Below, piece by piece: positions 1 to 17,899 of a stretch of 39,275 nucleotides of DNA. How positions within the stretch are numbered: the stretch's first letter is position 1; every line of letters starts with the position of its first letter. The stretch lies in the IMG/VR virus record IMGVR_UViG_3300029566_000030, one strand, 5' to 3'. Made by a program: the position numbers and the translations under genes. Under the pieces are notes generated by a model that did not search any database, was not told the DNA's origin, and saw only the letters and a list, made by a program, of their open reading frames with translations. Source of the DNA: a virus.

Positions 1-99
1 TGAGCGGCATATTCGTTGAACCATTGCTCGGCAAAGGCTTCGAATTTGATATGCCCGGCGCAGACGCCGCCGCGGCACTCCTCCTCAAAGAGAACCATT
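1..99. repeat. Terminal direct repeat copy 1 (identical to 39177-39275); overlap of a circular contig
   Basis: Bases 1-99 (tgagcggcatattcg...agagaaccatt) recur exactly at 39177-39275. The identity stops exactly at both window edges. Confidence 0.95.
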
Positions 100-248
100 T
101 GCCGCTGCAGCTCTTTCTCAATCTGCCGCTCTGACATGCCGGGCGTCGGCTTCCATGTCATGGACGGGCGAACCTGCTTGCCAGAGACGGTGAGGCCGCT
201 GGATGCTCTGATTAGGTATGCGTTGCCTCGTTTGGTATATGTAGCCAT
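1..248 (-). CDS. int: Tyrosine integrase, N-terminal arm-binding part; the same gene as 38240-39275 joined across the circular junction
   Basis: Minus-strand ATG at 248 follows AAAGGAG at 7 nt. It translates to MATYTKRGNAYLIRASSGLTVSGKQVRPSMTWKPTPGMSERQIEKELQRQ and runs in frame (150 nt) into MVLFEEECRGG, the start of the ORF at the window end. Confidence 0.85.
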   Translation of the reverse strand, partial: MATYTKRGNAYLIRASSGLTVSGKQVRPSMTWKPTPGMSERQIEKELQRQMVLFEEECRGGVCAGHIKFEAFAEQWFNEYAA

Positions 249-266
249 AAAATAACTCCTTTCATC

Positions 267-295
267 TTGTCAACCGCGCCCTCTCGTGGTAAGAT
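267..295 (+). promoter_or_regulatory. Candidate sigma-A type promoter (TTGTCA-17 nt-TAAGAT) in the cI-int spacer, pointing antisense to both genes
   Basis: TTGTCA at 267-272, a 17-nt spacer, TAAGAT at 290-295. A 7-bp inverted repeat GCGCCCT/AGGGCGC spans it. Confidence 0.35.
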
Positions 296-301
296 GAAAG
301 G

Positions 302-421
302 GCGCGGAGGGATGGATAGACTCCTTTCTTCTTTCATTTCTTCTTTCGTGGTTGTTAGGGGATATGTTTGCGCACTGCCGTCCTCGGTGTTGGTAGCACC
401 GAGGACGGCGTTTTTTATTTT
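302..421 (+). ncRNA. Candidate ~115-nt antisense sRNA (putative promoter to strong terminator), CU-rich body
   Basis: No credible ORF or RBS. The body contains ctcctttcttctttcatttcttctttc (anti-SD-like). It is bounded by the promoter candidate and the 376-421 terminator. Confidence 0.3.
376..421 (+). terminator. Strong plus-strand intrinsic terminator abutting the repressor stop codon
   Basis: A 13-14 bp stem (377-389 pairs with 397-410) with a 7-nt loop, followed by TTTTTTATTTT. On the minus strand there is no U tract after the hairpin, so cI-to-int readthrough remains possible. Confidence 0.8.
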
Positions 422-1457
422 ATCCCGGATAGCTGCCGAGAACACGGCCCAGGGTATAAAGGGTATCGCCTTCGGAGACGATGATATCTTTGTAAGCTTG
501 GTTGAGCGAGTGCAGACGTACTGTGCCGTTCTCTCGATCTACAATAAGCTGCTTGATATAGGAGTTTCCGTTCAGGGCGAATATGCCGATCTCCCCGTCA
601 TTGAGGACCGGCGTAGACTGGACGAATGCCGTGCTTCCGTTTTTGAACTTCGGCATCATCGAGTCGCCAGAGATCGGAACGCCATAGTTTGTTCCGGATG
701 GGATTATGCCGGAAGGATATTGCTCCATGTGCGTAACAGGCGTATCACTCAAGTAGTTACCGAGGCCTGCAGCGGCAGCTTCTTCAAAAACTGTAAGCTC
801 GTCGAAATTGTCCTCCTTGCGGTGGTTGATCTTCGCCTTCGGAAAGGGGAGAACGGTTTGCTTAACGGGGGCGGGCTTCGTGTCAGATTTAAGGGGGTCG
901 ATTTGAGAGTTACTGCACGGGAGTTCATCTAAATCTTCCACATAAGGATCCAGCGCGGTATCCACAATGTTGCGGATCGGCTGTCCGGCCTTCAGGTAAG
1001 CGTGCAGGAGGAGCATGGTCTTTTCGGCCTGGCTGCCGTCGAACTGGTCAACGGTGCCGATGATATCAGTCAGAGAGAGGGCGACGTTTCGCTCCAAAGC
1101 TTTGTAATATAGCAAGGCGATTCTCTTACTGTCCTCGCAGGCATAGATATTATGGATGCTGTGCTCTGTGCCGAAGAGCCGACGGAGCTCATCTATTGCG
1201 GCGGGGCGACCGGTTTTATTATCATCGGCGATGGCATCTAAGAGGGCCAACGTATCATCGCTATACCCCATCAAATAAGCGGGTGTCACATCAAATATTC
1301 TGGCGAACTCTGCAATTTTCGAGCGGGGCAAATCAACTTTACCGGATTCTATTTTTGCAATAGATGATCTGTCACCATACCCTGCCAGATCGGCTAAGTG
1401 CTGCTGAGACCACCCTCGGGAAGTGCGAAGCGCTTTGATGTTTTCGTGTAATTCCAT
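420..1457 (-). CDS. CI-like prophage repressor: N-terminal XRE HTH, long central helical domain, C-terminal S24/LexA-type autopeptidase
   Basis: MELHENIKALRTSRGWSQQHLADLAGYGDRSSIAKIESGK (HTH). C-terminal GVPISGDSMMPKF...SYIKQL (Ser/Lys dyad). ATG at 1457 is preceded by GAGGAGGGGA. The track ORF start at 1490 lacks an RBS. Confidence 0.9.
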   Translation of the reverse strand: MELHENIKALRTSRGWSQQHLADLAGYGDRSSIAKIESGKVDLPRSKIAEFARIFDVTPAYLMGYSDDTLALLDAIADDNKTGRPAAIDELRRLFGTEHSIHNIYACEDSKRIALLYYKALERNVALSLTDIIGTVDQFDGSQAEKTMLLLHAYLKAGQPIRNIVDTALDPYVEDLDELPCSNSQIDPLKSDTKPAPVKQTVLPFPKAKINHRKEDNFDELTVFEEAAAAGLGNYLSDTPVTHMEQYPSGIIPSGTNYGVPISGDSMMPKFKNGSTAFVQSTPVLNDGEIGIFALNGNSYIKQLIVDRENGTVRLHSLNQAYKDIIVSEGDTLYTLGRVLGSYPG

Positions 1458-1480
1458 TGAAGTCCCCTCCTCAATGAGGA

Positions 1481-1509
1481 AATATATCATGAGCGTGAAT
1501 TTGTGTCAA
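1481..1509 (-). promoter_or_regulatory. Leftward repressor promoter (TTGACA-17-TATATT)
   Basis: The minus strand reads TTGACA (1509..1504), 17 nt, TATATT (1486..1481). It lies directly upstream of the repressor SD. Confidence 0.75.
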
Positions 1510-1552
1510 CATTTTTTTAGATTTCTATAAAAATATGTTGACAATGGTTCAC
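1495..1552. promoter_or_regulatory. 58-bp quasi-palindrome with two mirrored operator-like sites overlapping both -35 boxes
   Basis: GTGAATTTGTGTCAAC (1495-1510) mirrors GTGAACCATTGTCAAC (reverse complement of 1537-1552) around an A/T-rich centre. Confidence 0.6.
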
Positions 1553-1566
1553 ACCGGAGGTAATAT
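1538..1566 (+). promoter_or_regulatory. Rightward early promoter (TTGACA-17-TAATAT)
   Basis: TTGACA at 1538-1543, a 17-nt spacer, TAATAT at 1561-1566. It lies upstream of the cro-like gene. Confidence 0.8.
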
Positions 1567-1572
1567 ATGCAT

Positions 1573-1587
1573 GTGAATTACATTCAC
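1573..1587. promoter_or_regulatory. Perfect palindromic operator GTGAAT-TAC-ATTCAC at the PR start site
   Basis: A 15-bp palindrome lies 7 nt downstream of the PR -10 box. Confidence 0.65.
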
Positions 1588-1614
1588 CACCAAGGCGAAA
1601 GGAGATGATGCGAT

Positions 1615-1821
1615 TTGAATACTGCGGAGCTGAGAGCGGCCATAGCACGGGCCGGAAAGACATATCGCGGCCTTGCCAAGTCCCTTGGTATATCTGAGCA
1701 GGCATTTTACAACAAATTGAATGGCGAAAGTGATTTCAAGGCCAGCGAGATTAAGGTCCTCAGAGGAGAGCTCAATCTGACATCCGAAGAAATCAACTAT
1801 ATTTTTTTCAATGATGCGTGA
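1615..1821 (+). CDS. Cro-like small HTH regulator
   Basis: TTG start 11 nt after AAGGAG. KTYRGLAKSLGISEQAFYNKLNG is an HTH. The position is divergent from the repressor. Confidence 0.8.
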   Translation: MNTAELRAAIARAGKTYRGLAKSLGISEQAFYNKLNGESDFKASEIKVLRGELNLTSEEINYIFFNDA

Positions 1822-1832
1822 ATTTAATTCAC
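1818..1832. promoter_or_regulatory. Second perfect palindromic operator GTGAAT-TTA-ATTCAC at the 3' end of the cro-like gene
   Basis: It has the same half-sites as 1573-1587 and overlaps the cro-like stop codon. Confidence 0.55.
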
Positions 1833-1862
1833 TAAATGCGCTTGGCGGAAAGGAGGGACAGC

Positions 1863-2078
1863 ATGAACGTAAAGAAACAGTATAGCCCGACACTAAGCCT
1901 ATCATTAAAAGGCTGCGCGTTGATCGCCGCAGTAGAAACCGGCCTTCTGCCTGAAACTGAACAGGACGGTCAACCCTGCTACGACACGAAAAAATTCGAT
2001 AAGTTTTGGGCTATGTACACGGAGTTAGCAAAAAAGAGACAGGAGAATATCAGCAAGAAGCGCCACCGCCGCGCCTAA
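1863..2078 (+). CDS. Hypothetical early protein (71 aa, K/R-rich tail)
   Basis: ATG at 1863 follows AAAGGAGGGA. The 3' 54 nt overlap the convergent minus-strand gene. Confidence 0.55.
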   Translation: MNVKKQYSPTLSLSLKGCALIAAVETGLLPETEQDGQPCYDTKKFDKFWAMYTELAKKRQENISKKRHRRA

Positions 2079-2339
2079 AAGCACCAGAAAGACCTGGAAC
2101 GCTTTGCCGTAACGCTCATGTCTGTACTCCGAAAGTGCCTGGCGACCGAGTTCGGTAATTTGATACGCGGAATCGTAAAACTGCACGATACCGGGGCAAC
2201 TTTGTACATCCATTCGAGAGGCTTCAATATATCCACATTTCAGGAGATATTCTTCGATCTCGGACAGCCCTTCATCTCCTATCGGTATTTCGGAGTCTTC
2301 GTATCTTTTTAATTCTTTGTATTGTTCACGAGTAAGCAT
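2025..2339 (-). CDS. Membrane-anchored small protein (soluble N-terminal domain plus C-terminal TM helix), opposite strand within the early operon
   Basis: Strong SD GGGAGGTG before the ATG at 2339. C-terminal VFLVLLGAAVALLADILLSLFC. Candidate promoter TTGCCC-17-TAGACT lies upstream on the minus strand. Confidence 0.7.
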   Translation of the reverse strand: MLTREQYKELKRYEDSEIPIGDEGLSEIEEYLLKCGYIEASRMDVQSCPGIVQFYDSAYQITELGRQALSEYRHERYGKAFQVFLVLLGAAVALLADILLSLFC

Positions 2340-2423
2340 AGCTTCGCACCTCCCTTTACCGCCAGTCTACCACGGCGTAGCGAGGAGGGCAATATCCCCT
2401 AACAACCACGAAAGGAGATCACT

Positions 2424-2663
2424 ATGACACCTACCGAAAAACTGCTCGCTGAGCAGGAGAAAATCGTCGCTGAGCGCGGCTACTACATACGCCCCGTTCG
2501 TATGGCGAATCTGATGAAAGCGGCTTCGAGGATCTTCGATATCCTCACAAAAGCCGATACCGCAATCAGCTATGAAGAATGCCGCATTGTACTGGAGATC
2601 GTGGCGCGAGCCATCGATGCCGCGGCGCCGGATGTAAAGGAGCCGCAGCCATGGCAAGAATGA
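2424..2663 (+). CDS. Hypothetical early protein (79 aa)
   Basis: GAAAGGAGA SD before the ATG. Protein-like composition. Confidence 0.7.
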   Translation: MTPTEKLLAEQEKIVAERGYYIRPVRMANLMKAASRIFDILTKADTAISYEECRIVLEIVARAIDAAAPDVKEPQPWQE

Positions 2664-2845
2664 GAACAGCTGAAGGCGTGATGGCCATTATCCGTGAGCA
2701 GGATCCGAAAACACAGGTCACCGTGCACGCGATTCGGCGCCTGATTGCAAGTGGAAAAGTCCCAGTGACGTGCTGCGGACGGAAATACTTGGTCGATGCT
2801 GATGCAATGATCGAGTTTATAGCGCGAGGAGGTGAGCCAGCGTGA
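2651..2845 (+). CDS. Excisionase-family / MerR-like HTH DNA-binding protein (64 aa)
   Basis: ATG at 2651 follows AAGGAG. VTVHAIRRLIASGKVPVTCCGRKYLVDADAMIEFI resembles Xis-type winged helices. Confidence 0.7.
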   Translation: MARMRTAEGVMAIIREQDPKTQVTVHAIRRLIASGKVPVTCCGRKYLVDADAMIEFIARGGEPA

Positions 2846-3360
2846 ACCGAGGCACCCGCGATACCATCTGCGCCACTATTGGCCTGCTGATTGTAATTGC
2901 TTTGCTGACTACTGTAGCCGCGCTGGACTCTCCTGGTGAAATGGACGAGCCGGATGCGTTATCGTCAGCGGCGCCGGAGCCGCGCGTAGAGATGCCGGAA
3001 GACAGCCTGCCAGCTGAGGAGTATGCGTACTGCAGCGACGTGTGCCTCGGACTGTTTGAGCTTACGGCCTACTGCCCATGCTCAGCCTGTTGCGGCAAGA
3101 ATGACGGTATTACCGCCACCGGCACTGTGGCCACTGAGGGACGTACCGTTGCAGTCGATCCGACCGTTATTCCCTACGGCACAACCATCGAAGTGATCTA
3201 TGCCGATGGCAGCTCTGCGCGCTATGTCGCCGAGGACTGCGGCGGCGCAATCAAAGCCCAGCGCCTGGACGTGTTCTTCGCGGATCATCAGACCGCGCGC
3301 GAATACGGCGTCCGGACGGCCTATGTCTTTCTTGTCCAGGAAGGAGGCGGCAATGAATAA
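2842..3360 (+). CDS. 3D-domain (RlpA-like double-psi beta-barrel) cell-wall protein with N-terminal membrane anchor
   Basis: TM segment ICATIGLLIVIALLTTVAAL. FELTAYCPCSACCGKNDGITATGT...GRTVAVDP...IPYGT...DCGGAIK..RLDVFF is a typical 3D domain. GTG start overlaps the previous stop. Confidence 0.85.
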   Translation: MNRGTRDTICATIGLLIVIALLTTVAALDSPGEMDEPDALSSAAPEPRVEMPEDSLPAEEYAYCSDVCLGLFELTAYCPCSACCGKNDGITATGTVATEGRTVAVDPTVIPYGTTIEVIYADGSSARYVAEDCGGAIKAQRLDVFFADHQTAREYGVRTAYVFLVQEGGGNE

Positions 3361-3622
3361 GGATTGCTCAAAAGTTTCGATTGAGCGTGGATCGGATGGC
3401 AGATTCACGGTGCTGCTGACTGGTAGCAAAGACGATATAAGGATGCTTTGGACCATGCTCAGCGTGAGTGTTTCCAAAGCGACCAAGACCCCGCTTCCTG
3501 TGCTGTGCGCAGTCTGTTCTACCGCAGGCCCAGCTATTGAAAATATGATGGGACGAAATGGCACGACCGTCGACATGAGCGTCCTTGGCAGATTCGCAAA
3601 GGGAAGGGGAGACGCCCCATGA
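3353..3622 (+). CDS. Hypothetical early protein (89 aa)
   Basis: ATG at 3353 follows GGAAGGAGG. ATGAATAA overlaps the upstream stop. Confidence 0.6.
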   Translation: MNKDCSKVSIERGSDGRFTVLLTGSKDDIRMLWTMLSVSVSKATKTPLPVLCAVCSTAGPAIENMMGRNGTTVDMSVLGRFAKGRGDAP

Positions 3623-3834
3623 TCCGCTGCGCATACTGCGACAGCGTTACGCTGGCGCTTGATCTCAATGGCGTCGATGCCCACGTCTGTCCCCTCTGCG
3701 GCGCTGTATTTGCCCGCCGGTACGGAAATACCTATTCCTTCATTGCTGATCTGAAAGGTGCTCAGGGCGTCAAGGAGCTTCTGCACTCTGTGCGACCGCA
3801 CGATCCACTGTATCGGTCAATCATCACAGCGTAG
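3619..3834 (+). CDS. Small zinc-ribbon protein (71 aa)
   Basis: CAYCDS...CPLCG motif pair. ATGA start/stop coupling with the upstream gene. Confidence 0.6.
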   Translation: MIRCAYCDSVTLALDLNGVDAHVCPLCGAVFARRYGNTYSFIADLKGAQGVKELLHSVRPHDPLYRSIITA

Positions 3835-4219
3835 GCCTTGAGAGCTTGGCCCAGATGGTCGAGTTGTCGGGCATGGACTGGCTCTATCATCTGGGCTAAG
3901 CGCCCGAGGGATAGTACCCTCCTTTCTAACAAAAAGCGGCCCCGTAAGCAGCCGCTCGCCGTCTGAGAGATGGTGCCCCAGTGCAATTCTGGCAGGGAGA
4001 CAAGCGGCAGCGCTCATGGTCGATGCATTTCTGGAAAGAAAAGGGGCGGTTCGATTCCGCCCTGCCGCATAGAGGGAGACGTTCCTGCCCTCTGCCGGGC
4101 GTGTACCCGGCACGTCCACTCTTTCACTGCCGAGTGCCGCAGCGCCGACTAACCCTCCCTGCTGCGGTGTCCGGCAGAGGGCAGAAACTCTCTATCCTGA
4201 AGGAAAGGAGGAAACGAAT
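3835..4219 (+). other. 386-nt GC-rich, hairpin-dense noncoding island between the early and recombination operons
   Basis: No credible ORF. Stems include 3849-3857/3888-3896, 3906-3910/3917-3921, 3935-3940/3951-3956, 4094-4099/4106-4111 and 4127-4143/4161-4177. A 14-bp long-range pairing joins 4085-4098 and 4171-4184. Confidence 0.6.
4004..4069 (+). ncRNA. tRNA-like minihelix: 7-bp acceptor stem and canonical T-arm, but no D-arm and a GGAA tetraloop in place of an anticodon loop
   Basis: GCGGCAG (4004-4010) pairs with CTGCCGC (4062-4068). T-arm is GGCGG-TTCGATT-CCGCC (4045-4061). TTTCT-GGAA-AGAAA forms a hairpin. Discriminator is A, with no encoded CCA. Confidence 0.5.
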
Positions 4220-4576
4220 TTGGAAGATCTCAGCAAGCGGTCAATTATTGACATGGCACGCGGTGCCATTAAGGAACGCGTGGACTACGAGATGACCAGA
4301 GTTGTCGAGAATATTCTTGATCCCAACACCTCGGCAACCGCAGCGCGCAAAATCACCATTACACTCAACCTCAAGCCAGACGATACGCGCCAGAACATTG
4401 CTGTAAGTTGTGTGGCCAAGTCCACTTTGGCTGCAACCAACCCCGTCACTACAGCTCTCTATGTCGCCGATGAGGAATCCATCGTTGAGATGGTTCCGCA
4501 GATCCCTGGGCAGTTGGCGGTTGACGCCAGCGAGCAGGAAGCTCCGCCCATGCTCAAGCTCATTCAAACCGCTTAA
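4220..4576 (+). CDS. Conserved-looking phage protein (118 aa), function unknown
   Basis: TTG start 8 nt after AAGGAGG. First gene of the recombination operon. Confidence 0.7.
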   Translation: MEDLSKRSIIDMARGAIKERVDYEMTRVVENILDPNTSATAARKITITLNLKPDDTRQNIAVSCVAKSTLAATNPVTTALYVADEESIVEMVPQIPGQLAVDASEQEAPPMLKLIQTA

Positions 4577-4600
4577 TTTTAGGAAAGGAAGTACATTCCC

Positions 4601-5341
4601 ATGCTCAAAGAAGCCATTCAGTATGTGCTCGAGAATATGCGCCCGGAGGCCCAGAACCTCGGCAATCGCGCATATATCATCACCCAGAAGGGCGCGCAGG
4701 AGGTCATCGAGACTCCCATCGCGCCGGATACCGTTCCCCTGCATAGTCTCGACTCCATCGTGAAGATGATCCGTACCGAGGCTATCCATCTGGCGGATGT
4801 CAATACCCCTGCACTTTTCGTCAATATCCCTTCGCCCACCAATGTGGTCTGCTTCTCTCAGCCGGACTATGAGCAGCGCTGCCACCGCACGGTCTATTAC
4901 TCTGCGGACGCAACTGATGTTCCCGGCTGGGATGCGAAAGTCACGCTCGGCTTTGAAGAGGCCCAGATTGCGCTGCGTACCCGCTTCCAGGAGACCCCAG
5001 ACTCGCTCTATGCGATGAAGCTCGTCAACGACATTTCTCTCGGTGCCAAGGTCATCTACAACGACAACGGTGTTGCCACTACCGTGACCACCCAAAAGGG
5101 CGTCGCACTCCAGACCAATGAGCAGATCCGGCCCATTGTCAAGCTCCGCCCTTATCGCACGTTCCAAGAGGTCGAACAGCCTGAAAGCACGTTCCTCATC
5201 CGCATCAGCGACCGCGGCATTTCGTTCATCGAGGCCGATGGCGGTATGTGGCGCCTGACGGCCCGCAACACCATCAAGGCATTCCTGGAGGAGAATCTTG
5301 CTGCCGAGATCGAGAGCGGCAAGCTCGTTGTCGCCCTGTGA
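4601..5341 (+). CDS. Hypothetical phage protein (246 aa) of the recombination module
   Basis: AGGAAAGGAAG SD. Long ORF with coding-like composition. No family recognised with certainty. Confidence 0.8.
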   Translation: MLKEAIQYVLENMRPEAQNLGNRAYIITQKGAQEVIETPIAPDTVPLHSLDSIVKMIRTEAIHLADVNTPALFVNIPSPTNVVCFSQPDYEQRCHRTVYYSADATDVPGWDAKVTLGFEEAQIALRTRFQETPDSLYAMKLVNDISLGAKVIYNDNGVATTVTTQKGVALQTNEQIRPIVKLRPYRTFQEVEQPESTFLIRISDRGISFIEADGGMWRLTARNTIKAFLEENLAAEIESGKLVVAL

Positions 5342-5343
5342 GC

Positions 5344-5410
5344 AAAAAAATCCCCTGCAGGTCTCACACACCTGCAGGGGAACGATTGGCACCATACCAA
5401 TCCTTAGTTG
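5344..5410 (-). ncRNA. Candidate ~66-nt antisense sRNA (oop-like) with a 5' hairpin and an intrinsic terminator
   Basis: Minus strand: 5' hairpin GATTGG-tatggtg-CCAATC, then an 11-bp stem CCCCTGCAGGT/ACCTGCAGGGG (5352-5380) followed by A then TTTTTTT. Confidence 0.5.
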
Positions 5411-5416
5411 CGCCCT

Positions 5417-5445
5417 ATTGTAAGGGCAGAAAGCGAGTTTGTCAA
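5417..5445 (-). promoter_or_regulatory. Near-consensus minus-strand promoter TTGACA-17-TACAAT overlapping the ATPase start codon
   Basis: Reverse complement of 5401-5447 reads caTTGACAaactcgctttctgccctTACAATagggcgca. Confidence 0.6.
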
Positions 5446-6893
5446 TGAAAACGACCAAAATTGTAATCAAAAATCTGTTCGGGATCAAGGAGACCGAGCT
5501 CGACGGCCGCTCTGTGGAGATCTCCGGCCCGAAAGGAAGCGGCAAAACTTCCGTCCTTGATTCTATCCGCTACGCCCTCACCAACCGCTCAGATCGTGAT
5601 TATATCGTGCATCGGGGCGCCGATGAGGGCGAAATCCTCATTGAGACCGATACCGGCCTCTCCATCGACCGTAAGGCCTTGCCCGCCAAGTCTGCCGGCA
5701 CGGTCAAGGTGCGCGACGGATCTCTCCTTCAGACGCGTCCGGCAGAGTTCCTCTCGCAGATCTTCACGCCGCTGCAGCTTAATCCTGTCGAGTTCACCCA
5801 GCTCTCCCGGCAGGAAAAGAACCGCGTCATTCTCAATCTCATCGAATTTGCGTGGGACACCAACTGGATCCGTGAGCAATTCGGCGAAATCCCGCAGGGT
5901 GTGGACTATTCCAAGCATATTCTCGAGGTTCTGCACGATATCCAGGCGGAAAACGGTGTCTATTTCCAGTCACGCCAGAACATCAACCGCGACATCCGCA
6001 ACAAGCAGGCATTCGTTTCCGACATCGCAAAGGACATTCCTTCCGGCTACGATTTCGACCATTGGAATACATATCCCATCGGTGAGAAGTATCGTGAGCT
6101 GGAGAGCCTGAAGGAGCAGAACAATGTGATCGAGCGGGCCAGAGCCTTCCGGAACAGCCACGAGGCGAAGCTCCGCGGGCTGGAGGGTCAGCGCGACCTT
6201 GACATCGCGGCTATCGACCGTAAGACCTCCGAGGACCGCACCCGCCTCACCACGGATATCGAGCGCCTGAAGGCGGAGATCCGCTTGTATGAGGAACGGC
6301 TTGCCGGGCTGGATGAGCGCAGAGAGGAAAGCGTGCGCGTGGTCACCTCCGGCTTTAACGAAAAGAAAGCTAAGCTGGAGCGCGATGCAGGAATCGCAGA
6401 CCAGTATATCGGCCGCGAGCTTGCTGATACGACCGCGCTTTCCAAGGAGATCGACACAGCCGAGGCTATGCGTAAGCACCTCAATGAGTACCAGCGCATG
6501 GTTTCCATGCAGGAAGAGATCGGGAAGCTTACCGAGGAATCCGAGGAGCTGACACGCAAGATCGAGCTCGCGCGGGAGCTGCCGGCGACGATCCTGCAGA
6601 CTGCGACGATTCCCGTTGATGGCCTGACCGTTGAAGACGGTGTGCCGCTGATCCACGGCCTGCCCATTTCCAATCTGTCCGACGGCGAGCTACTGGAGCT
6701 GTGCGTGGATATCACGGTGAGCAAGCCGGGACAGCTTCAGATCATTCTCATCGATGGCGCCGAGCGCCTTGATAAGGAGAGCCGCGAAAAGCTGTACGCC
6801 AAGTGTAAAGCCAAGGGCCTGCAGCTGATCGCAACGCGCGTGACCGATTCCAATGTAATGGAGGTAACCAACTTAGATGATGACGAAAGATAA
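5445..6893 (+). CDS. SMC/RecF/SbcC-like ABC-type ATPase with coiled-coil insert
   Basis: Walker A GPKGSGKT, long coiled-coil, signature LSDGE, Walker B LQIILIDGAE. Confidence 0.9.
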   Translation: MKTTKIVIKNLFGIKETELDGRSVEISGPKGSGKTSVLDSIRYALTNRSDRDYIVHRGADEGEILIETDTGLSIDRKALPAKSAGTVKVRDGSLLQTRPAEFLSQIFTPLQLNPVEFTQLSRQEKNRVILNLIEFAWDTNWIREQFGEIPQGVDYSKHILEVLHDIQAENGVYFQSRQNINRDIRNKQAFVSDIAKDIPSGYDFDHWNTYPIGEKYRELESLKEQNNVIERARAFRNSHEAKLRGLEGQRDLDIAAIDRKTSEDRTRLTTDIERLKAEIRLYEERLAGLDERREESVRVVTSGFNEKKAKLERDAGIADQYIGRELADTTALSKEIDTAEAMRKHLNEYQRMVSMQEEIGKLTEESEELTRKIELARELPATILQTATIPVDGLTVEDGVPLIHGLPISNLSDGELLELCVDITVSKPGQLQIILIDGAERLDKESREKLYAKCKAKGLQLIATRVTDSNVMEVTNLDDDER

Positions 6894-7503
6894 GCTCCGC
6901 CAGCTTAGTGGCGACGAACGCCTCGGGCAGATGCGAGAATCCGAGTATCTGGGCGCCGAAGACATTGACGATGGGACCGAGCCGATACTGACCATTGCCG
7001 GCCTGTGGTATGGCTCCGTCACGCTCCAGCGCGGCAAGGAAAATAAGGATGTGCTCTCCTTCAAGGAAGAACGCGTACCTGGCATTCTTCAGGTGCGGCC
7101 GCTGATCGTCAACTCAACCAACCGCAAGACACTGCGTAAGCTGTTCGGCGACGCCAAGGCTTCAACGCTGGTCGGTAAGCAGATCCAGCTCTTCGTGGAC
7201 CACAACGTCCGCGATCCTCAGGATGGCGGCATGACCGACGGCATCCGTATCCGGCCGTATAAGCCCCGCCCCCCGAAGCAGGAGCCCGTACCGCCCTGTG
7301 CGGACTGTGAGGGCGAGATCACGCCAGCAATGGGAAGAGACGCCCGCTGGCTAGCGGCATACACGACGAAGCACTACGGCGTTCCGCTCTGTGCGGAATG
7401 CGCGCAGAAGCGCAAGGATGCTGCGACCGCAGCCGCGGCGTCGCAGGAAGAGCAGCCGACCCCGTCTGAAGAGACTGTGGCTGAGACCGAGGAGGTGCTG
7501 TAA
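6877..7503 (+). CDS. Hypothetical recombination-module protein with C-terminal zinc ribbon
   Basis: CADCEGE...CAECAQ motif. Overlaps the ATPase stop. Confidence 0.75.
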   Translation: MMTKDKLRQLSGDERLGQMRESEYLGAEDIDDGTEPILTIAGLWYGSVTLQRGKENKDVLSFKEERVPGILQVRPLIVNSTNRKTLRKLFGDAKASTLVGKQIQLFVDHNVRDPQDGGMTDGIRIRPYKPRPPKQEPVPPCADCEGEITPAMGRDARWLAAYTTKHYGVPLCAECAQKRKDAATAAAASQEEQPTPSEETVAETEEVL

Positions 7504-8345
7504 TGGACCTTCCGGTAGTTACACCGGAGAATTATTATTCTCCGGAAATGAACATGGCCTATATGGGCTCTACGCAATTCAAGGCCTTTGAGAAATGCGA
7601 AGCGGCTGCATTGGCAGAGCTCCGCGGCGAATATACGCCGCCGACGTCACAGGCTTTTCTGGTCGGCGGATATATCGACGCTTGGTTTTCCGGCGAGCTG
7701 CCGCTCTACCAGGCACAGCATCCGGAGATCTTCAAGCGTGACGGTACGCTCAAAGCGGAGTACGTCAAAGCCACTGAGATCGTCGCCCGCCTTCAAGCGG
7801 ACGAGCTCTATTCCATGCTCATGTCGGGAAAGAAGCAGGTCATCCGCACCGGTGTTATCGCCGATGTTCCTTTCAAAGTTAAGATCGACAGCCTGCTTGA
7901 CGCCAATACCTGCAATGTGATCGCCAACCGCTGGCCGCACACGGCAGCCGCGCTGGGCTTTTGCGATGGGGCCATCGTAGATCAGAAAATCATGCGGGAC
8001 ACAGCAGAGGTGTGGTCCGAGGAAGACCATTGCAGGCTTCCGTTCGTCGAGGCTTACGGCTACGACCTTCAGGGCGCAATCTATCAGGCCATCGAGGGAC
8101 ACTTCCTGCCGTTTATCCTCGCCGTCGGTACGAAGGAGGATGCTCCGGATCTGGCGGCCCTCTATATCAACGACGATGACCTTGCAGCCAAGCTCGCTGA
8201 GGTCGAGGACCGCGCGCCGCGGTATCAGGCTATCAAGGATGGAAAGGTCGAGCCGCGCCGTTGCGAGCATTGCGCCTATTGTCGGGCGACCAAATGCCTC
8301 ACGGCCATTTTGGACTACAGGGAGATGAATTACCTTGCTGAATAA
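7503..8345 (+). CDS. PD-(D/E)XK (RecB/Cas4-like) exonuclease with C-terminal Cys cluster
   Basis: KIDSLLD...IVDQK motif, LQGAIYQ motif, and C-terminal CEHCAYCRATKC. Confidence 0.85.
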   Translation: MDLPVVTPENYYSPEMNMAYMGSTQFKAFEKCEAAALAELRGEYTPPTSQAFLVGGYIDAWFSGELPLYQAQHPEIFKRDGTLKAEYVKATEIVARLQADELYSMLMSGKKQVIRTGVIADVPFKVKIDSLLDANTCNVIANRWPHTAAALGFCDGAIVDQKIMRDTAEVWSEEDHCRLPFVEAYGYDLQGAIYQAIEGHFLPFILAVGTKEDAPDLAALYINDDDLAAKLAEVEDRAPRYQAIKDGKVEPRRCEHCAYCRATKCLTAILDYREMNYLAE

Positions 8346-8760
8346 AATCTTCATCATGGGACGTCTGACCCGTGATCCAGAGCTGCGCCATACGCAGAGT
8401 GGAACGGCCGTCGCGTCGTTTTCCCTCGCTGTGGATCGAGACTTCAAGGAGCAGGACGGCAGCAGAGTGACAGACTTCATTGACTGTGTTGCATGGCGAT
8501 CCAGCGCGGAATTTGTGGATAAATACTTCTCCAAAGGCCGCATGGCTGTGGTTGAAGGCCGACTCCAGATCCGTGACTGGACGGACAAGGACGGCAACAA
8601 GCGCCGCAGCGCCGAGGTCATCGTGAACAGCATTTATTTCGGAGACAGCAAAAAGGACGGAGATTCTTCCTTCGGAAACTACCGTGCAGCTGGCGCTCCG
8701 GTCGATGTGAGCGCGTCCGACTTTACGGACGTCGAAGACGATGGCGAGTTACCGTTCTGA
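8335..8760 (+). CDS. ssb: Single-stranded DNA-binding protein
   Basis: MLNKIFIMGRLTRDPELRHTQSGTAVASFSLAV OB-fold N-terminus. Acidic C-terminal tip DDGELPF. Confidence 0.95.
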   Translation: MLNKIFIMGRLTRDPELRHTQSGTAVASFSLAVDRDFKEQDGSRVTDFIDCVAWRSSAEFVDKYFSKGRMAVVEGRLQIRDWTDKDGNKRRSAEVIVNSIYFGDSKKDGDSSFGNYRAAGAPVDVSASDFTDVEDDGELPF

Positions 8761-9283
8761 TCTTGCCGCAGAAATCAAAGAGCGACTTACCGCACGGCAG
8801 GTCATTGAGGCTTACGGATTCCATCCTAACCGAGCAGGTTACATCCAGTGTCCATTTCATGCTGGTGACAGACACGGAAGCCTGAAGATCTATGACGGTG
8901 ATAAGACGGGCTGGCATTGCTTCGGCTGTGGGGCCGGTTCCACCGTCATAGACTTCGTGATGAAGCTCTTCAATATCAATTTCCGGCAGGCATGCTTGCG
9001 CCTTGATGCCGATTTTTCCCTTGGATTGACAGGCAAAAGGCCCAGTGCGGCGGAGATATCCGCTGTACTGGCTGCCCGCCGGCAGGAAGCAGAGAGAAAA
9101 GCAGCGGCGGATCGTGAATACCGCAGGAAAGCTGCAGAGCATTGTTATTGGTGGCAAGTCAAGAAACTGTTTGAGCCGGACAATGCAGACGCGGATGTCG
9201 GTTACATTCACCCGTTGTATGCAGAAGCAATAAAACGACTACCAAGCCTTGAATACTGGCTTGATGAACATTTGGGGGATTGA
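8741..9283 (+). CDS. CHC2 (DnaG-type) zinc-finger protein without a recognisable TOPRIM domain
   Basis: CPFHAGDRHGSLKIY...WHCFGCGAGSTVIDFV is the primase zinc-finger signature. The protein is only 180 aa. Confidence 0.85.
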   Translation: MASYRSDLAAEIKERLTARQVIEAYGFHPNRAGYIQCPFHAGDRHGSLKIYDGDKTGWHCFGCGAGSTVIDFVMKLFNINFRQACLRLDADFSLGLTGKRPSAAEISAVLAARRQEAERKAAADREYRRKAAEHCYWWQVKKLFEPDNADADVGYIHPLYAEAIKRLPSLEYWLDEHLGD

Positions 9284-9286
9284 GTT

Positions 9287-11140
9287 TTGGGAAACGATAC
9301 GCAAAAACCAGCCAGATGGAGTTACACAGCGGAGGACTTTCTGGAATCTACTGCGCCATACGAAGAGCTGGAAAAATGCAATGGCGATCCATTCCTCCAG
9401 CAGCGTATGATCGAGGCAATGAGTAAATACGCCGCAAGCATCGGCTTCCGCGGCCTGAAGCTCATGTATAAGCGCTACCAGCAGAGCATCCGAACATCAC
9501 AAGGAGCCTATATCGGCGAAAATCCAACAAATTTTGAGAATCAGCCTATTGAACTTGATGCTGGGAAGTGGGAGGCGGATGACAGCGGTGTGCGGAGATC
9601 AGACGGGTTTGGAGATGCTGTTGCCTGCCCGCACCCGATTCTTCCTGTCGAACGGCTGGTAAACATTGATACCGGTGAAGAAAAGCTGAGGCTTGCGTTC
9701 CGGAAGGGAGCCATCTGGCGGAAGATTATCGTGAGCAAGGTTATACTCGCCAATGCGAATAAAGTGACTGAACTGGCCGGCTGTGGCGTGGCAGTCACGA
9801 GTCAGAATGCCCGTGCCTTTGTAGAGTACATATCGGACATCGAGAACCTCAACTATGATGTGATCCCAGAACGGAAAAGCATCGGACGCTTCGGATACAT
9901 TCCGGATGAAGGCTTTTCCCCCTTCGTGGACGGTCTGATCTTCGATGGCGACGCCAGCTTTGCCGCGATGTTCCAGACGGTGCGCAGTCACGGCTCTGAA
10001 GCAAAGTGGCTGGATATTGCCGCAGAAGTGAGGGCGATGTCCACGACGGCAAAAATCATTCTTGCAGCATCTTTCTCCAGCGTGCTTCTTGAGCCGCTCG
10101 GCTGTCTGCCGTTCTTCGTACACCTCTGGGGCGTTGACTCAGGCACCGGCAAGACTGTTGCTTTGATGGTAGCCGCAAGCGTTTGGGGCGATCCCGCTAT
10201 CGGTAACTACGTCAAGACCTTTGATGGAACGGTCGTCGGCATGGAAAAGACGGCGGCATTTCTCAATGAGCTGCCGCTGTGTCTCGACGAGCTGCAGCTT
10301 GCCAAGGACAACAAGGGCCGCACGAATTTCGACGTCTATAAGCTCGCGCAGGGTGTTGGACGAACCCGCGGCAACCGTGCCGGCGGCGTCGATCTGACGC
10401 CAACCTGGCACAACTGTATTCTCACAACGGGAGAAAGCCCACTGACCGGACAAGCCTCCGGCGCCGGTGCGGTCAACCGTGTTATTGACATCGAATGCAA
10501 AGCGTCTCAGGCCGTTATAAAGGACGGTATGCATGTCTCCGGTATGGTCAAGCGCAACTATGGCTATGCCGGCAAACGGTTCGTGGAGGAGCTCTATAAG
10601 CCAGGCGTGATCGATCAGATCGCACCGCGGTATCAAGAGCTGTTCCGGGATCTGAGCGATCGAGACACGACTGAGAAACAGGCTATGGCGGCCGCAGCGA
10701 TCGTCCTCGCGGACGAATTGGCGTGCCAGTGGATCTTCGCCGGCGCGCAGAAGCCGATCACCGTGGAAGAGATCTCCGAGTTTCTCGCGTCCAAGGCGGC
10801 AGTGTCAGCCGGTGACCGCGCTTATAAATACCTCTGCGGATGGGTAGCGCAGAACAGCAATCACATGGTCGGCCGCTCGGAAACAATCGACGTTTACGGA
10901 AGTATCGAGGACGGAAAGGCATATATCATCCGGCCAATCTTTGAACGTGCTCTCTCTGATGCAGGATATTCGACCGCTGCCACGCTGTCTCACTTGAAGG
11001 AAGCTGGACTGATCGAAACGCGCGGCCGTGCTATGACCAAATGCAAACGCATCAACGGCGTACAGACGGAGTGCATCTGTCTGACGCTACCTCTTCTTTC
11101 CGAAGATGAAGAGGAGAGCGGCGAGGAACTGCCGCTGTAA
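9287..11140 (+). CDS. SF3-type P-loop replicative helicase / primase-associated protein (DUF927/VirE-like)
   Basis: Walker A GVDSGTGKT, Walker B LCLDELQ. 617 aa. Located directly after the CHC2 protein. Confidence 0.8.
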   Translation: MGNDTQKPARWSYTAEDFLESTAPYEELEKCNGDPFLQQRMIEAMSKYAASIGFRGLKLMYKRYQQSIRTSQGAYIGENPTNFENQPIELDAGKWEADDSGVRRSDGFGDAVACPHPILPVERLVNIDTGEEKLRLAFRKGAIWRKIIVSKVILANANKVTELAGCGVAVTSQNARAFVEYISDIENLNYDVIPERKSIGRFGYIPDEGFSPFVDGLIFDGDASFAAMFQTVRSHGSEAKWLDIAAEVRAMSTTAKIILAASFSSVLLEPLGCLPFFVHLWGVDSGTGKTVALMVAASVWGDPAIGNYVKTFDGTVVGMEKTAAFLNELPLCLDELQLAKDNKGRTNFDVYKLAQGVGRTRGNRAGGVDLTPTWHNCILTTGESPLTGQASGAGAVNRVIDIECKASQAVIKDGMHVSGMVKRNYGYAGKRFVEELYKPGVIDQIAPRYQELFRDLSDRDTTEKQAMAAAAIVLADELACQWIFAGAQKPITVEEISEFLASKAAVSAGDRAYKYLCGWVAQNSNHMVGRSETIDVYGSIEDGKAYIIRPIFERALSDAGYSTAATLSHLKEAGLIETRGRAMTKCKRINGVQTECICLTLPLLSEDEEESGEELPL

Positions 11141-11425
11141 ATGCGGAAAAGTGCGGAGCTGCGCGGTACATCTGTTACGCGCCCGCAAGCCCTTGTGTCG
11201 CAAGGCTTTGACGGCATTTTTCAGAGGGGCGCGGAACTGAGGAACACGATATACACCCCTATAGGAAAAGTTTGTGCGAGTGTGGGAATTAACGGAAATT
11301 TAACGTACATGCAAAAGGCGAGGAAATTTTCACATTTTATGTTCCGCAGTTCCGCACATACCCGCAAACCCTTATGCCGCAAGGCTTTGACGTGCGGAAC
11401 AAGTTTTCCGCGATGCTCCGCAGTT
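11141..11425. repeat. Iteron cluster plus A/T-rich core: putative replication origin
   Basis: At least 8 copies of nTGCGGARC in both orientations (for example 11151-11159, 11229-11237, 11341-11357, 11392-11400, 11415-11423). Two 32-bp direct repeats (11182-11213 and 11361-11392) share 29/32 identity. An A/T-rich stretch lies at about 11255-11340. Confidence 0.55.
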
Positions 11426-11445
11426 ACGCACAAAAGGAGCAAAAA

Positions 11446-12969
11446 ATGAAATTACGAGACTATCAAATCGACTGCATCGACACGATCGAAGCGCAGCCGC
11501 CGGGCGCGTACCTTGCTCAGATGGCGACAGGGCTCGGCAAGACGGTAACCTTTGCAAACCTCCCGCGGCACGGGAAGCGTATGCTGATTCTCTCTCACCG
11601 TGAGGAGCTGGTAGAGCAGCCGCGCAAATACTTCGATTGTTCCTTCGGCGTCGAGCGTGCAGCACTCCGAAGCTACGATGAGGAGGTCGTCAGCGCGTCG
11701 GTTCAGTCCCTTGTGCGCCGTCTGCACCGCTTCCAGCCAGATGAATTTGGCTTAATTATCTGCGACGAGGCACACCACGCCGCAGCAAATACTTACCGGA
11801 AGATCTTCGACCACTTCACACCGGACAAGCTCATCGGCTTTACTGCGACGCCGAACCGCGGCGATAAGGTTCGTCTGGATACAGTGTTCTCCAAGATCAT
11901 CTTCCAGAGAGATCTTCGCTGGGGCATTGAGCACGGATATCTCTGCGACATCTTCTGCCGGCGTGTCAACATCGGCTATGACCTGAGCCAAGTCCACACA
12001 CAGCGGGGGGACTATGCGCCTGGTGAGCTGGATGAAGCAATGGAAGGCACGGCTGACGCAATCGCGCAGGCATACCGAGAGCTGGCCACCGGCGCAACAC
12101 TGATCTTCGCTGTCAGTGTCCACCATGCCGAAGAGATTGCAAAGCGGATTCCTGGCGCTGTAGTAGTCACTGGCGAGACCAAAGATCGTGCTGCCATCAT
12201 CAAGGCGTTTACCGCTGGTGAGATTCCTTGCATCGTAAACTGCATGGTTTTCACAGAGGGAACCGATATTCCCCGCGTGGAGACGGTTATCATCGCCCGT
12301 CCTACACAGTCTGAGTCGCTCTATGCGCAGATGGTCGGGCGCGGGCTGCGGCTATATCCAGGAAAAGAAAAGCTCAATCTGATCGACTGTGTTGGCATTA
12401 CGGGCCGCTCATCGCTTTGCACAGCGCCTTCGCTGCTCGGGCTGGATATGTCTAACGTACCGGTACGCAAAGCCAACGAAGTTGTGGGCGACATTTTTGA
12501 CCTGCCGGCAAAGATTGAAGCTGCCAGCGATGCGCCGGAGAGCTGGATTCGCAATATCGAGATCGTTGATCTCTGGGCGAAAGGACAGAAATACAACACC
12601 CATGACATTAACTTCTTCAAAATGCCGGATGGTTCACTTGTGTGTTCGCTGAAAGATAAACAGAAAATCACCATTCCCTGCCCAGACGCTCTCGGCATGG
12701 TCTGCATGCCGGATGGCACCCGCTGCAAAATGCAGGAAGCTCTCGATCTCGCGTATTGCCAGCTGATTCGAGATCATCTGGACTGTCGACATTTGTGGGA
12801 TCTTCAAATCGTCAAAAAGTGGGGGCGCATGCCAGCAACCGAACGTCAGTTGGCACTTATCCGCAAGCGATGCCAGGGCTACGACCCAGCGGGGCTGAGC
12901 AAAGGCGATGCCAGTCAAATCATTAACCGTCTATTCAACGAGCCAAAGAAAAGGGGGATGCGCTTATGA
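11446..12969 (+). CDS. SF2 DEAH-box helicase (res-subunit-like)
   Basis: MKLRDYQ...MATGLGKT (motif I), ICDEAHH (motif II), FTATP (motif III). ATG at 11446 follows AAAAGGAG. The track start at 11374 lies in the iteron region. Confidence 0.9.
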   Translation: MKLRDYQIDCIDTIEAQPPGAYLAQMATGLGKTVTFANLPRHGKRMLILSHREELVEQPRKYFDCSFGVERAALRSYDEEVVSASVQSLVRRLHRFQPDEFGLIICDEAHHAAANTYRKIFDHFTPDKLIGFTATPNRGDKVRLDTVFSKIIFQRDLRWGIEHGYLCDIFCRRVNIGYDLSQVHTQRGDYAPGELDEAMEGTADAIAQAYRELATGATLIFAVSVHHAEEIAKRIPGAVVVTGETKDRAAIIKAFTAGEIPCIVNCMVFTEGTDIPRVETVIIARPTQSESLYAQMVGRGLRLYPGKEKLNLIDCVGITGRSSLCTAPSLLGLDMSNVPVRKANEVVGDIFDLPAKIEAASDAPESWIRNIEIVDLWAKGQKYNTHDINFFKMPDGSLVCSLKDKQKITIPCPDALGMVCMPDGTRCKMQEALDLAYCQLIRDHLDCRHLWDLQIVKKWGRMPATERQLALIRKRCQGYDPAGLSKGDASQIINRLFNEPKKRGMRL

Positions 12970-13115
12970 AGCTGTATGTAACAAAAGCAGAGGACCGAGA
13001 TCTGATGGTCATGATTCTTGCCAGAAATGGTTATACCGTCCGCCAGGGCAAGGAGAAAAAACCTGAAACCAAGCAGACGGTCGCTTTTGTGGAGATAATT
13101 GAGAATGGCAAGTGA
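12966..13115 (+). CDS. Small hypothetical protein (49 aa), below the ORF-track cutoff
   Basis: ATGA coupling to the helicase stop. Translates to MKLYVTKAEDRDLMVMILARNGYTVRQGKEKKPETKQTVAFVEIIENGK. It fills an otherwise empty gap. Confidence 0.45.
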   Translation: MKLYVTKAEDRDLMVMILARNGYTVRQGKEKKPETKQTVAFVEIIENGK

Positions 13116-13479
13116 ATCCAGCCATCAGCAGGCGGTGATTAAATGGTCGCAGCAGCCGTCTGTGCGTGAGCGGTATCCAGAGTTGGCTCTGCTGCACCAC
13201 ATCAAGAACGAGACGAAAGAGGGCGCTGCGCAGGTCGCTGTGGATAAGGCGATGGGCGTCAAAAAGGGTGTGCCGGATCTGCACCTGCCTGTCGCCCGCG
13301 GCGGCTATCACAGCCTCTACATCGAGATGAAGAATGAAACCGGCCGCGCAAACGATGCGCAGAACTGGTGGCTCGAACGCCTGAAGCTGGAGGGTAATTA
13401 TACCGTGGTCTGCCACGGTTGGCAGTCTGCGGTGAACATCCTCACATGGTATCTCGGACTGGGTGAATACCATGCCTGA
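13105..13479 (+). CDS. VRR-NUC domain nuclease
   Basis: GVKKGVPDLHLP...LYIEMK motif (PD-(D/E)XK type), which commonly follows phage SF2 helicases. Confidence 0.85.
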   Translation: MASESSHQQAVIKWSQQPSVRERYPELALLHHIKNETKEGAAQVAVDKAMGVKKGVPDLHLPVARGGYHSLYIEMKNETGRANDAQNWWLERLKLEGNYTVVCHGWQSAVNILTWYLGLGEYHA

Positions 13480-13843
13480 GTTTGCCCTGCCTTATGAGCA
13501 GGCTGCCATGCATAACGAAGAAATGCCGGCGGGCTTGAGTATCTATGACCAGGCAGCCTATCAGGCCCTCCGGCACCTATACCGCTCGTACCGCATGAAA
13601 ATCATCGACCGCGCTCAGGCTGCTCATGAAAAGAAGATGATCGTCAAAGCTCGCAACGAGGCTGTCGCTGTTGCTGCATTTGAGCAGAGATGCGCATTTA
13701 ACCGCGCCGAGACGATTCGACTCACTGAAGCAGCTAAAGCCGCCTGCAGAAAAGATCCCTCTGTTGAAAATGTTATCCGGCTGGTCAATGTACTTGACGG
13801 CCTTGAAAGGAGACCTCCCAATGAAGGAAGCGGATATCAATAA
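13463..13843 (+). CDS. Hypothetical protein (126 aa; start may be ATG 13472)
   Basis: ORF with protein-like helical composition. Overlaps the upstream stop. Confidence 0.65.
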   Translation: MNTMPEFALPYEQAAMHNEEMPAGLSIYDQAAYQALRHLYRSYRMKIIDRAQAAHEKKMIVKARNEAVAVAAFEQRCAFNRAETIRLTEAAKAACRKDPSVENVIRLVNVLDGLERRPPNEGSGYQ

Positions 13844-14060
13844 AACCGCGATCATCTCCGGACTTAAAGCGTACCGTGAACGCAACGGCGCCAGAGCCTA
13901 TCGTATCGTGGCTCACTATGTCGGCTCAAAACGCATCTCTGATGACGTGCTTCGTGCCATTGTCAGCAACGCCTACCGTATTTCCGATGAAGCGTGGATG
14001 CGCATTGATGCGACGCTTGATGACCTTGAAAAGAAGGAGGCAATGAAGCATGAAAAATAA
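13821..14060 (+). CDS. Hypothetical protein (79 aa)
   Basis: ATG at 13821 follows AAAGGAGA. In frame with track ORF 13671..14060. Confidence 0.65.
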   Translation: MKEADINKTAIISGLKAYRERNGARAYRIVAHYVGSKRISDDVLRAIVSNAYRISDEAWMRIDATLDDLEKKEAMKHEK

Positions 14061-14280
14061 GCTGGTTGATTTGAATAATCATCTCTTTGCGGAACTGGAA
14101 CGCCTGAGCGACGAAGATCTGCAAGGTGACGCGCTGACGGCAGAAATCGACCGTGCGAAAGCTATTACGGGCGTTGCGTCTCAAATCATTGCGAACGGCA
14201 CGCTTGTCCTGAAGGCAAGGGTCATCGCCGATAATAGCTTGTCCGCAGATTTCACCGTGCCTGCGATGCTGGAGGATTGA
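14050..14280 (+). CDS. Hypothetical protein (76 aa)
   Basis: Compact ORF coupled to its neighbours. Confidence 0.65.
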   Translation: MKNKLVDLNNHLFAELERLSDEDLQGDALTAEIDRAKAITGVASQIIANGTLVLKARVIADNSLSADFTVPAMLED

Positions 14281-14283
14281 TCC

Positions 14284-15673: not shown

Positions 15674-15680
15674 GGTTTAT

Positions 15681-16814: not shown

Positions 16815-16824
16815 GGGCAACACG

Positions 16825-17031: not shown

Positions 17032-17115
17032 AGCCGGTATTGGCAAAGCTTTGCGGAACGTAAAACCGGTATTTTTTATGCATGGTCTGACTACTATGCC
17101 AACCCAGCAGATGGG

Positions 17116-17161
17116 CGTCAAAATTTGAGTGCACCGGCAACGGCGCACGAGAATTTTGACG
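17116..17161 (+). other. Long hairpin CGTCAAAATT...AATTTTGACG
   Basis: A 10-bp stem (17116-17125 with 17152-17161) plus an inner GTGC/GCAC pairing. Confidence 0.5.
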
Positions 17162-17883: not shown

Positions 17884-17899
17884 ACAGGGGGGGCTCATT

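Follow-up and report, generated by a model that had tools for sequence, protein, structure and literature searches.

What is encoded on the minus strand of the short gap between two early genes of a gut phage? The stretch of DNA analysed here, IMG/VR virus record IMGVR_UViG_3300029566_000030 (39,275 nucleotides (nt), in full length referred to as the window), comes from a temperate phage or prophage of Oscillospiraceae, and in a 103-nt spacer between a gene of family phrog_1029 and a gene for an ATPase resembling SMC, RecF and Rad50 a preliminary description had placed an antisense small RNA (sRNA) unit of the lambda oop type, at positions 5344-5445. Our comparison with related loci indicates that the element is very probably a conserved antisense sRNA gene, and its separate aspects can be asserted with different degrees of assurance. 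There is a strong likelihood that a real minus-strand transcription unit is present, and it is probable that the RNA product itself is under selection; that this RNA acts in cis on the operon in the manner set out below has an even chance at best. The proposal taken as a whole, an independent gene for a non-coding minus-strand RNA of ~63-68 nt that would act as a cis-antisense regulator of the early operon, is in our estimate evenly poised. That the element represents a new RNA family in poorly studied gut phages is solid.

The promoter proposed earlier, TTGACA and TACAAT separated by 17 nt on the minus strand (5445..5417), is present to the base; it matches the consensus at 11 of 12 positions and ranks at the top of a scan of positions 1-20000, tied with one other site, while the terminator ranked second in the consensus scan of the same interval and both hairpins were recovered by an inverted-repeat finder. 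By our own arithmetic about 0.5 promoters with 11/12 matches are expected by chance in the window, and the expectation for such a promoter on the same strand and no more than ~90 nt upstream of a given terminator is ~6e-4. The predicted 68-nt RNA (5411-5344) has a folding energy of -34.4 kcal/mol (z = -5.45), with none of 200 shuffled sequences as stable, and folds into exactly two elements, hairpin 1 and the terminator hairpin. Both had been recognised before, as GATTGG/CCAATC and an 11-bp stem, and both are present, although each is somewhat larger than described, the stem extending to 12 bp and hairpin 1 to 8 bp. Similarly, the -35 box does overlap the start codon of the ATPase gene as proposed, but it shares only a single base with it, because the open reading frame (ORF) begins at 5445-5447. 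As the T-run stops 3 nt short of the upstream stop codon, the unit occupies the entire spacer (5342-5444). The overlap of signals is unusually dense, with a promoter lying over a ribosome-binding site (RBS) and start codon, a terminator abutting the upstream stop, and a -10 hexamer inside a covarying palindrome. Among the features of an independent sRNA gene, near-consensus hexamers at a spacing within 16-18 nt, a GC-rich hairpin with a U-tract, and covariation on the transcribed strand are found.

As had been stated in the preliminary description, there is no ORF led by a Shine-Dalgarno (SD) sequence that ends before the terminator; an AAGGA-N5-ATG at 5395 opens a frame without a stop before the T-run, and was rejected as a coding start also because the ATG is missing in other sequence groups. 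We regard a 434-residue minus-strand ORF that runs across the site (4241-5545) as spurious, as it has no Pfam or PHROG match, unlike the plus-strand genes. The plus strand of the spacer contains neither ATG nor GTG, and thus no start for the toxin ORF of a type I toxin-antitoxin system, and neither a scan nor inspection by eye found a promoter or terminator on that strand of the spacer. There are no Rfam matches at the gathering threshold, and at E <= 10 the best scores on 5344-5394 are 17-20 bits against thresholds of 39-46, with nothing relevant among them; ARAGORN reported no tRNA or tmRNA.

We have examined 150 loci encoding relatives of the ATPase, together with MT839530; the relatives comprise viral contigs from the human gut and prophages of Oscillospiraceae genomes. 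The promoter is carried by 109 of the loci in 23 sequence variants, which form approximately nine sequence groups with unrelated hairpin sequences; with this distribution the unit is not a chance match. Relatives of 69-99% identity have the element ahead of the ATPase start, and it is absent in those of 50-65% (Roseburia-type, L022/L048/L147 and L063), in which coding sequence or a strong GGAGG lies immediately upstream of the ATPase gene; because the element-less relatives L063, L022 and the Roseburia-type have other SD-ATG spacers, the ATPase gene does not dictate the -35. In all 23 variants the -35 is TTGACA, TTGACT or TTGCAT, with the TTG invariant, and is positioned at the complement of the start codon, and the promoter spacer is 17 nt in every group with the exception of L001, where it is 18. 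The -10 occurs as TACAAT, TAAAAT, TATCAT, TATTAT, TATGAT, TATAGT and TATAAT, such that T1, A2 and T6 are invariant, A5 is nearly so, and positions 3 and 4 are free to vary (TAnn[A/G]T); this pattern is the expectation for a real sigma-70/SigA promoter. The hexamers are the most conserved part of the spacer, and the transcribed part shows 49-81% identity, modestly below the flanking genes. In the eight groups other than C the intergenic spacer is 99-110 nt, and the predicted RNA is 60-73 nt, the group C variant L141 being left out. A covariation-backed RNA gene in more than 100 prophage and viral contigs offers a concrete regulatory element at the entry to the recombination and replication module, and an entry in an RNA family database could improve the annotation of gut viromes.

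More distant relatives of the ATPase, in Paenibacillus phage Lilo and the Streptococcus Javan phages, were considered and have no comparable unit. In Lilo (31% ATPase identity) a 69-nt AT-rich gap at 1432-1500 contains TTGATT-16-TATGAT on the minus strand and a T-run, with no hairpin, and this weak promoter-like match is probably due to chance in AT-rich DNA. Two of the contigs show assembly artefacts at the terminator: in L007 (1-60) the palindrome is replaced by long C/G homopolymer runs, and L143 (~1-50) breaks in the loop of the terminator hairpin and runs into the Nextera adapter CTGTCTCTTATACACATCT. Short-read assemblies apparently fail at the strong hairpins of the terminator palindrome.

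Covariation in homologous phages had been put forward as a check on the structure, and it bears the structure out, as both stems are rebuilt with different sequences through compensatory changes. In an alignment of 17 sequences, taken from groups A, A3, B, B2, F and I, RNAalifold finds a consensus of two hairpins; over the full two-hairpin structure 94.1% of cells are paired, compared to 82.8% in shuffles, there are eight pairs with changes on both sides, and the covariation score is 0.375, against 0.173 in shuffles, none of 500 of which reaches the observed value. When the partners are slid by 1-3 columns as a control, only 30-51% of cells are paired. A covariance model built from the alignment finds one match per locus in constant place and strand, with no second copy elsewhere in the window, and it detects groups G and H, which were outside the seed, at 47-50 bits.

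The question of which strand is selected can be addressed with the same sequences. Hairpin 1 has 13 cells that read as G.U on the minus strand; on the plus strand the same cells are A.C mismatches and no G.U occurs, and these cells lie at three positions in different lineages (L004-type; B, B2 and L131; the window and group I). A T-tract lies 3' of the stem on the minus strand in eight of the nine groups (A, A3, B, B2, F, G, H and I) and on the plus strand in none, and the minus-strand fold is the more stable in eight of ten parsed representatives. The orientation of promoter and T-tract, together with the wobble pattern of hairpin 1, thus identifies the minus strand as the one whose RNA is selected, although the evidence from the terminator stem is mixed, with U.G on the minus strand in C, C2 and L056 and the opposite situation in other groups, as discussed below. 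Coordinates and group assignments are given in Table 1.

Table 1. Features of the antisense unit, its surroundings and the lysogeny switch in the window, and representatives and -10 repeat arms of the sequence groups.
Feature	Position	Strand	Details
phrog_1029 gene, upstream	4601-5341	+	stop TGA 5339-5341; same family upstream in all element-bearing groups
SMC/RecF/Rad50-like AAA ATPase gene, downstream	5445-6893	+	phrog_1499; AAA_23, SMC_N; ATG 5445-5447
-35 hexamer TTGACA	5445-5440	-	first base is the complement of the A in the ATPase ATG
Promoter spacer, 17 nt	5439-5423	-	includes the complement of the ATPase SD AGAAAGCGAG (5428-5437, +) and the GCCCT arm (5427-5423)
-10 hexamer TACAAT	5422-5417	-	sequence reading and consensus scan
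Predicted transcription start	5409-5411	-	6-8 nt past the -10; placed by promoter geometry only
Inverted repeat GCCCT-N6-AGGGC	5412-5427		brackets the -10; unique in the window
Hairpin 1	5402-5384	-	GATTGG (5402-5397)/CCAATC (5389-5384); 8 bp including one U.G, loop UGG (RNAfold)
Terminator hairpin	5381-5351	-	(T)CCCCTGCAGGT 5381-5370 / ACCTGCAGGGG(A) 5362-5351; 12-bp GC-rich stem, 11 bp of which are CCCCTGCAGGT/ACCTGCAGGGG; loop GUGUGAG
U7 tract, predicted 3' end of sRNA	5350-5344	-	3 nt short of the upstream stop codon
CI-like repressor gene, helix-turn-helix and S24 domains	420-1490	-	lysogeny switch
Cro-like helix-turn-helix gene	1615-1821	+	opposite the CI-like repressor gene
Divergent near-consensus switch promoters	1509-1481 and 1538-1566		
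Group A			representative, the window; arms GCCCT / AGGGC
Group A3			representative, L001
Group B			representative, L012; arms CCCC / GGGG
Group B2			representative, L010; arms TCTCC / GGAGA
Group C			representatives, L059 and others; arms CCTGC / GCAGG
Group F			representative, L085; arms CCCC / GGGG
Group G			representatives, L143-145; arms GCCCC / GGGGC, around TGTTAAAAT
Group H			representatives, L148, L109-119; arms CCCA / TGGG
Group I			representatives, L129-131; arms CCCC / GGGG

How might such an RNA act? A near-consensus promoter for the housekeeping sigma factor would start it at about 5409-5411, giving a short 5' leader followed by hairpin 1, the terminator and a U7 end. The switch region of the window (1440-1630) carries repeated GTGAA-N5-TTCAC palindromes, which are probably the repressor operators, and no match to them lies on the antisense promoter; as no copy is found there, we infer that the promoter would be constitutive and would fire also in the lysogen, where its product would mop up leaky early transcripts. 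Complementarity of the sRNA to the spacer in the rightward polycistronic early mRNA would be perfect, and with complementary hairpins on both partners, loop-loop pairing could progress to a duplex of ~65 bp that would be cut by RNase III, the cleavage uncoupling or destabilising the ATPase-recombination-replication part of the message. The promoter, lying over the ATPase RBS and ATG, would in addition fire head-on into early transcription. Leaky read-through would in this way be damped under repression of the early promoter, and the antisense promoter would be occluded when early transcription is strong.

The description of the unit as antisense to the intercistronic region of the early recombination operon holds, since it lies between two plus-strand genes with matches to phage families, and the intercistronic spacer of the early polycistronic mRNA is the only possible target, with the upstream ORF and the ATPase RBS both out of reach. 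The RNA is unable to mask the RBS because the SD (5428-5437) is overlapped by the promoter spacer, ahead of the predicted start. We note that a longer antisense RNA starting from 5488-5460 (TTGATC-17-TACAAT) would cover the RBS, and this candidate was rejected as its hexamers are not conserved in groups B and C. Complementarity to the RNA elsewhere in the window is at the level of chance (three sense-strand 10-mers, with 2.2 expected), and no single-stranded segment is conserved between groups. The combination of conserved promoter strength and conserved RNA length and structure with no conserved single-stranded sequence and no above-chance complementarity elsewhere is the signature of a cis-antisense RNA, whose target covaries automatically.

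The comparison with lambda oop and P22 sar made at the outset is apt as to kind, in that this is a conserved antisense unit of promoter, hairpin and terminator, and does not extend to the specific geometry of either. Pairing in cis and cleavage by RNase III are the means by which OOP acts (PMC7067206, PMC5415839). Like the gut-phage RNA it is short (77 nt), has its own promoter and intrinsic terminator, and is directed against a rightward early operon upstream of replication genes; however, OOP overlaps the 3' coding end of cII, whereas the gut-phage RNA stops 3 nt short of the upstream ORF (last position of the U-tract, 5344; stop codon, 5339-5341), there is no similarity in sequence or structure, and the host of the gut phage is a Gram-positive anaerobe. 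The size and two-hairpin form of sar were reportedly described by Liao and colleagues in 1987 and by Schaefer and McClure in 1997. As in the window, sar of the P22 immI region is a small antisense RNA within the intercistronic region of an operon (arc-ant) and shows convergent promoter interplay (PMC2629481), but it covers the ant RBS and blocks translation, while in the window the RNA has no complementarity to the downstream RBS, which is located beneath the promoter spacer and outside the transcript (ATG at 5445).

Two chromosomal RNAs are the nearest functional analogues. GadY of Escherichia coli, encoded in cis between the co-transcribed genes gadX and gadW, pairs with the spacer and brings about its cleavage, with altered stability of the products (PMC5415839), and it is the closest mechanistic counterpart for a purely intercistronic target; it differs in being enterobacterial and Hfq-associated and in stabilising the mRNA of the upstream gene, and it is not homologous. 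The second, scr4677 of Streptomyces, is an intra-operonic sRNA that is antisense near the start of the downstream gene and affects the abundance of the downstream transcripts (PMC3896431); unlike the gut-phage element it is actinobacterial, its action is independent of RNase III, and the neighbouring anti-sigma factor controls its promoter. No new category of regulator is involved, as oop and sar already made cis-antisense sRNAs of temperate phages a familiar kind. The Oscillospiraceae are abundant human-gut Clostridia, most of them uncultured, and hardly anything is known of how their phages regulate genes; if the RNA controls prophage induction or replication it would provide a handle for manipulating lysogeny in these bacteria.

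Several observations weigh against cis-antisense action on the early operon. Because the RNA covers neither coding sequence nor RBS, classical antisense repression is unavailable to it, and its target spacer seems to exist only to encode the RNA; nor is the RNase step a given, in view of the behaviour of scr4677 (PMC3896431). No cultured phage has an ATPase with more than ~31% identity to that of the window. In groups B, F and H the terminator stem has an A.C on the minus strand that corresponds to a G.U on the plus strand, in the same column in B and F and in another in H (L012 2905-2935, L085 1403-1437, L148), so that the large hairpin may also be selected in the sense mRNA; it probably forms and matters in both transcripts. 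Group C (~15 loci) departs from the general pattern in having a -35 of TTGCAT with three of six matches alongside a perfect TATAAT (9/12 in total), no hairpin 1, and only a weak tract, TTTGG or CTGCTTTTG, after a 13-bp stem. This group, which has an intergenic spacer of 204 nt, falls below the thresholds of the promoter and terminator scans, and its RNA may be longer or less efficiently terminated. The loop of its large hairpin occurs in both orientations in otherwise near-identical loci, CGCTAC versus GTAGCG (L059/L060 versus L062/L066, ~2915-2935), which indicates inversion of the palindrome.

A further difficulty is the covarying inverted repeat around the -10, which the sRNA model does not explain. 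The repeat lies upstream of the predicted start and is therefore absent from the sRNA, and it is present in the sense mRNA, where its end, 15-18 nt ahead of the ATG, coincides with the 5' edge of the ATPase SD. Its arms covary between groups, with the register shifted by one base in F, G and H; because this shift defeats a column-based pair count on the MAFFT alignment, the arms were compared group by group. The repeat is absent from relatives without the antisense promoter. Candidate roles are that of a hairpin stabilising the 5' end of processed ATPase mRNA, of an operator bound by an unknown dimer, of a promoter sensitive to supercoiling, or of a translational operator; an operator of the phage repressor is unsupported, as the palindrome is unique in the window and unrelated to the GTGAA-N5-TTCAC palindromes of the switch.

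One account of the repeat would invert the sign of regulation. The repeat could be dual-coded, the DNA serving as antisense promoter and the sense mRNA forming a stem-loop that starts 1-3 nt past the end of the sRNA:mRNA duplex, such that sRNA-guided cleavage would leave an ATPase-operon mRNA with a 5'-terminal stem-loop, and the antisense RNA would activate or stabilise, not repress, the recombination and replication genes. A 5'-terminal stem-loop is the classic protection from 5'-end-dependent decay in Bacillota. The geometric basis for this suggestion is that the repeat covaries in all nine groups, occurs only together with the antisense promoter, and is in the sense RNA and not in the sRNA; we consider it unlikely.

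Alternatives to the cis-antisense reading have to be set against the same data. In one, the sRNA works in trans or binds protein, its targets being superinfecting relatives (exclusion) or host mRNAs, or it sequesters a host protein as a decoy. Expression in the lysogen is plausible given a promoter that looks constitutive and lacks a CI-type operator, the GATTGG/CCAATC stem is kept in at least five groups with unrelated terminator stems, and the sequence types differ between otherwise similar phages, as specificity determinants would; there is also a precedent in STnc6030 of phage BTP1, which mediates antisense-based exclusion of superinfecting relatives (PMC7067206). However, no conserved single-stranded seed is found, nor is complementarity above chance seen elsewhere in the window. 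Diversifying selection on the sRNA was considered and is unsupported, as the identity of the transcribed part is only modestly under that of the flanking genes, and we regard action in trans as rather unlikely.

Improbable too, in our assessment, is that the promoter acts by interference only, with polymerase bound at it or firing from it blocking or colliding with early transcription, the RNA being a by-product of which the terminator disposes. This would fit the footprint of the promoter, which covers the ATPase RBS and ATG, the particular conservation of the hexamers, the lack of a coding or RBS target for the RNA, and the placing of a terminator that directly limits antisense read-through. 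It does not account for hairpin 1, which is needless for a by-product and for promoter interference, and which is nonetheless kept by compensatory changes and by the 13 minus-specific G.U cells; this argues that the RNA itself is selected, beyond the promoter. The constancy of RNA length and of the two-hairpin architecture in eight groups is equally unexplained by interference.

It is also conceivable that only the sense strand matters, with a minus-strand promoter that does not function and hairpins that signal processing of the polycistronic early mRNA or affect its stability. The early mRNAs of Bacillus phage SP82 are described as having RNase III sites between cistrons and stabilising elements at the 5' end; the sense spacer of the window folds into three hairpins (z = -4.56), the terminator stem in B, F and H is fully paired on the plus strand only, and the inverted repeat around the -10 occurs in sense RNA only. 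Left unexplained are the invariant TTG...TAnnAT at 17-nt spacing in 23 variants, the A-tract 5' of the stem on the plus strand (the U-tract 3' of it on the minus strand), and the 13:0 split of wobble pairs between the strands in hairpin 1, and we judge this account very improbable. Finally, a transcript that primes or activates a nearby replication origin, as was once proposed for oop and has been reported for the origin transcript of lactococcal phage c2, can hardly be entertained: the position at the head of the recombination/replication module and the strong promoter with a short non-coding product would suit it, but the spacer lacks both iterons and an AT-rich region for unwinding, the RNA would be set free at an efficient terminator, and a repeat-rich non-coding stretch of 380 nt at 3835-4215 is a better candidate for an origin.

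The surroundings of the unit are those of an early region beyond a lysogeny switch (Table 1). The rightward order of genes is phrog_997, phrog_1029, the SMC/RecF-like ATPase, phrog_21613, a PDDEXK exonuclease, a primase zinc-ribbon protein and a DUF927 primase/helicase. The stretch at 3835-4215, ~380 nt without a convincing ORF, lies between a small plus-strand ORF and the phrog_997 gene. It includes a tRNA-like T-arm, GGGGCGGTTCGATTCCGCCCT, at ~4044-4064 (the Rfam tRNA-Sec model scores 23.5 bits, versus a threshold of 47, and ARAGORN reports none), two units of A-run and hairpin that are readable as minus-strand terminators (3957-3934 and 4062-4044), and a long inverted repeat at 4077-4191, and it is a candidate origin or structured RNA. 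Within the rightward early region there is also a minus-strand ORF of 104 amino acids (2025-2339) with a hydrophobic C-terminus and no PHROG match, which may be a moron or spurious. We note lastly that GC skew is positive throughout the window apart from two 1-kb bins between 4001 and 6000, in which it is negative (-0.08, -0.11), producing a local minimum of the cumulative skew near 6000; this could reflect the origin of the module, replication or gene content.

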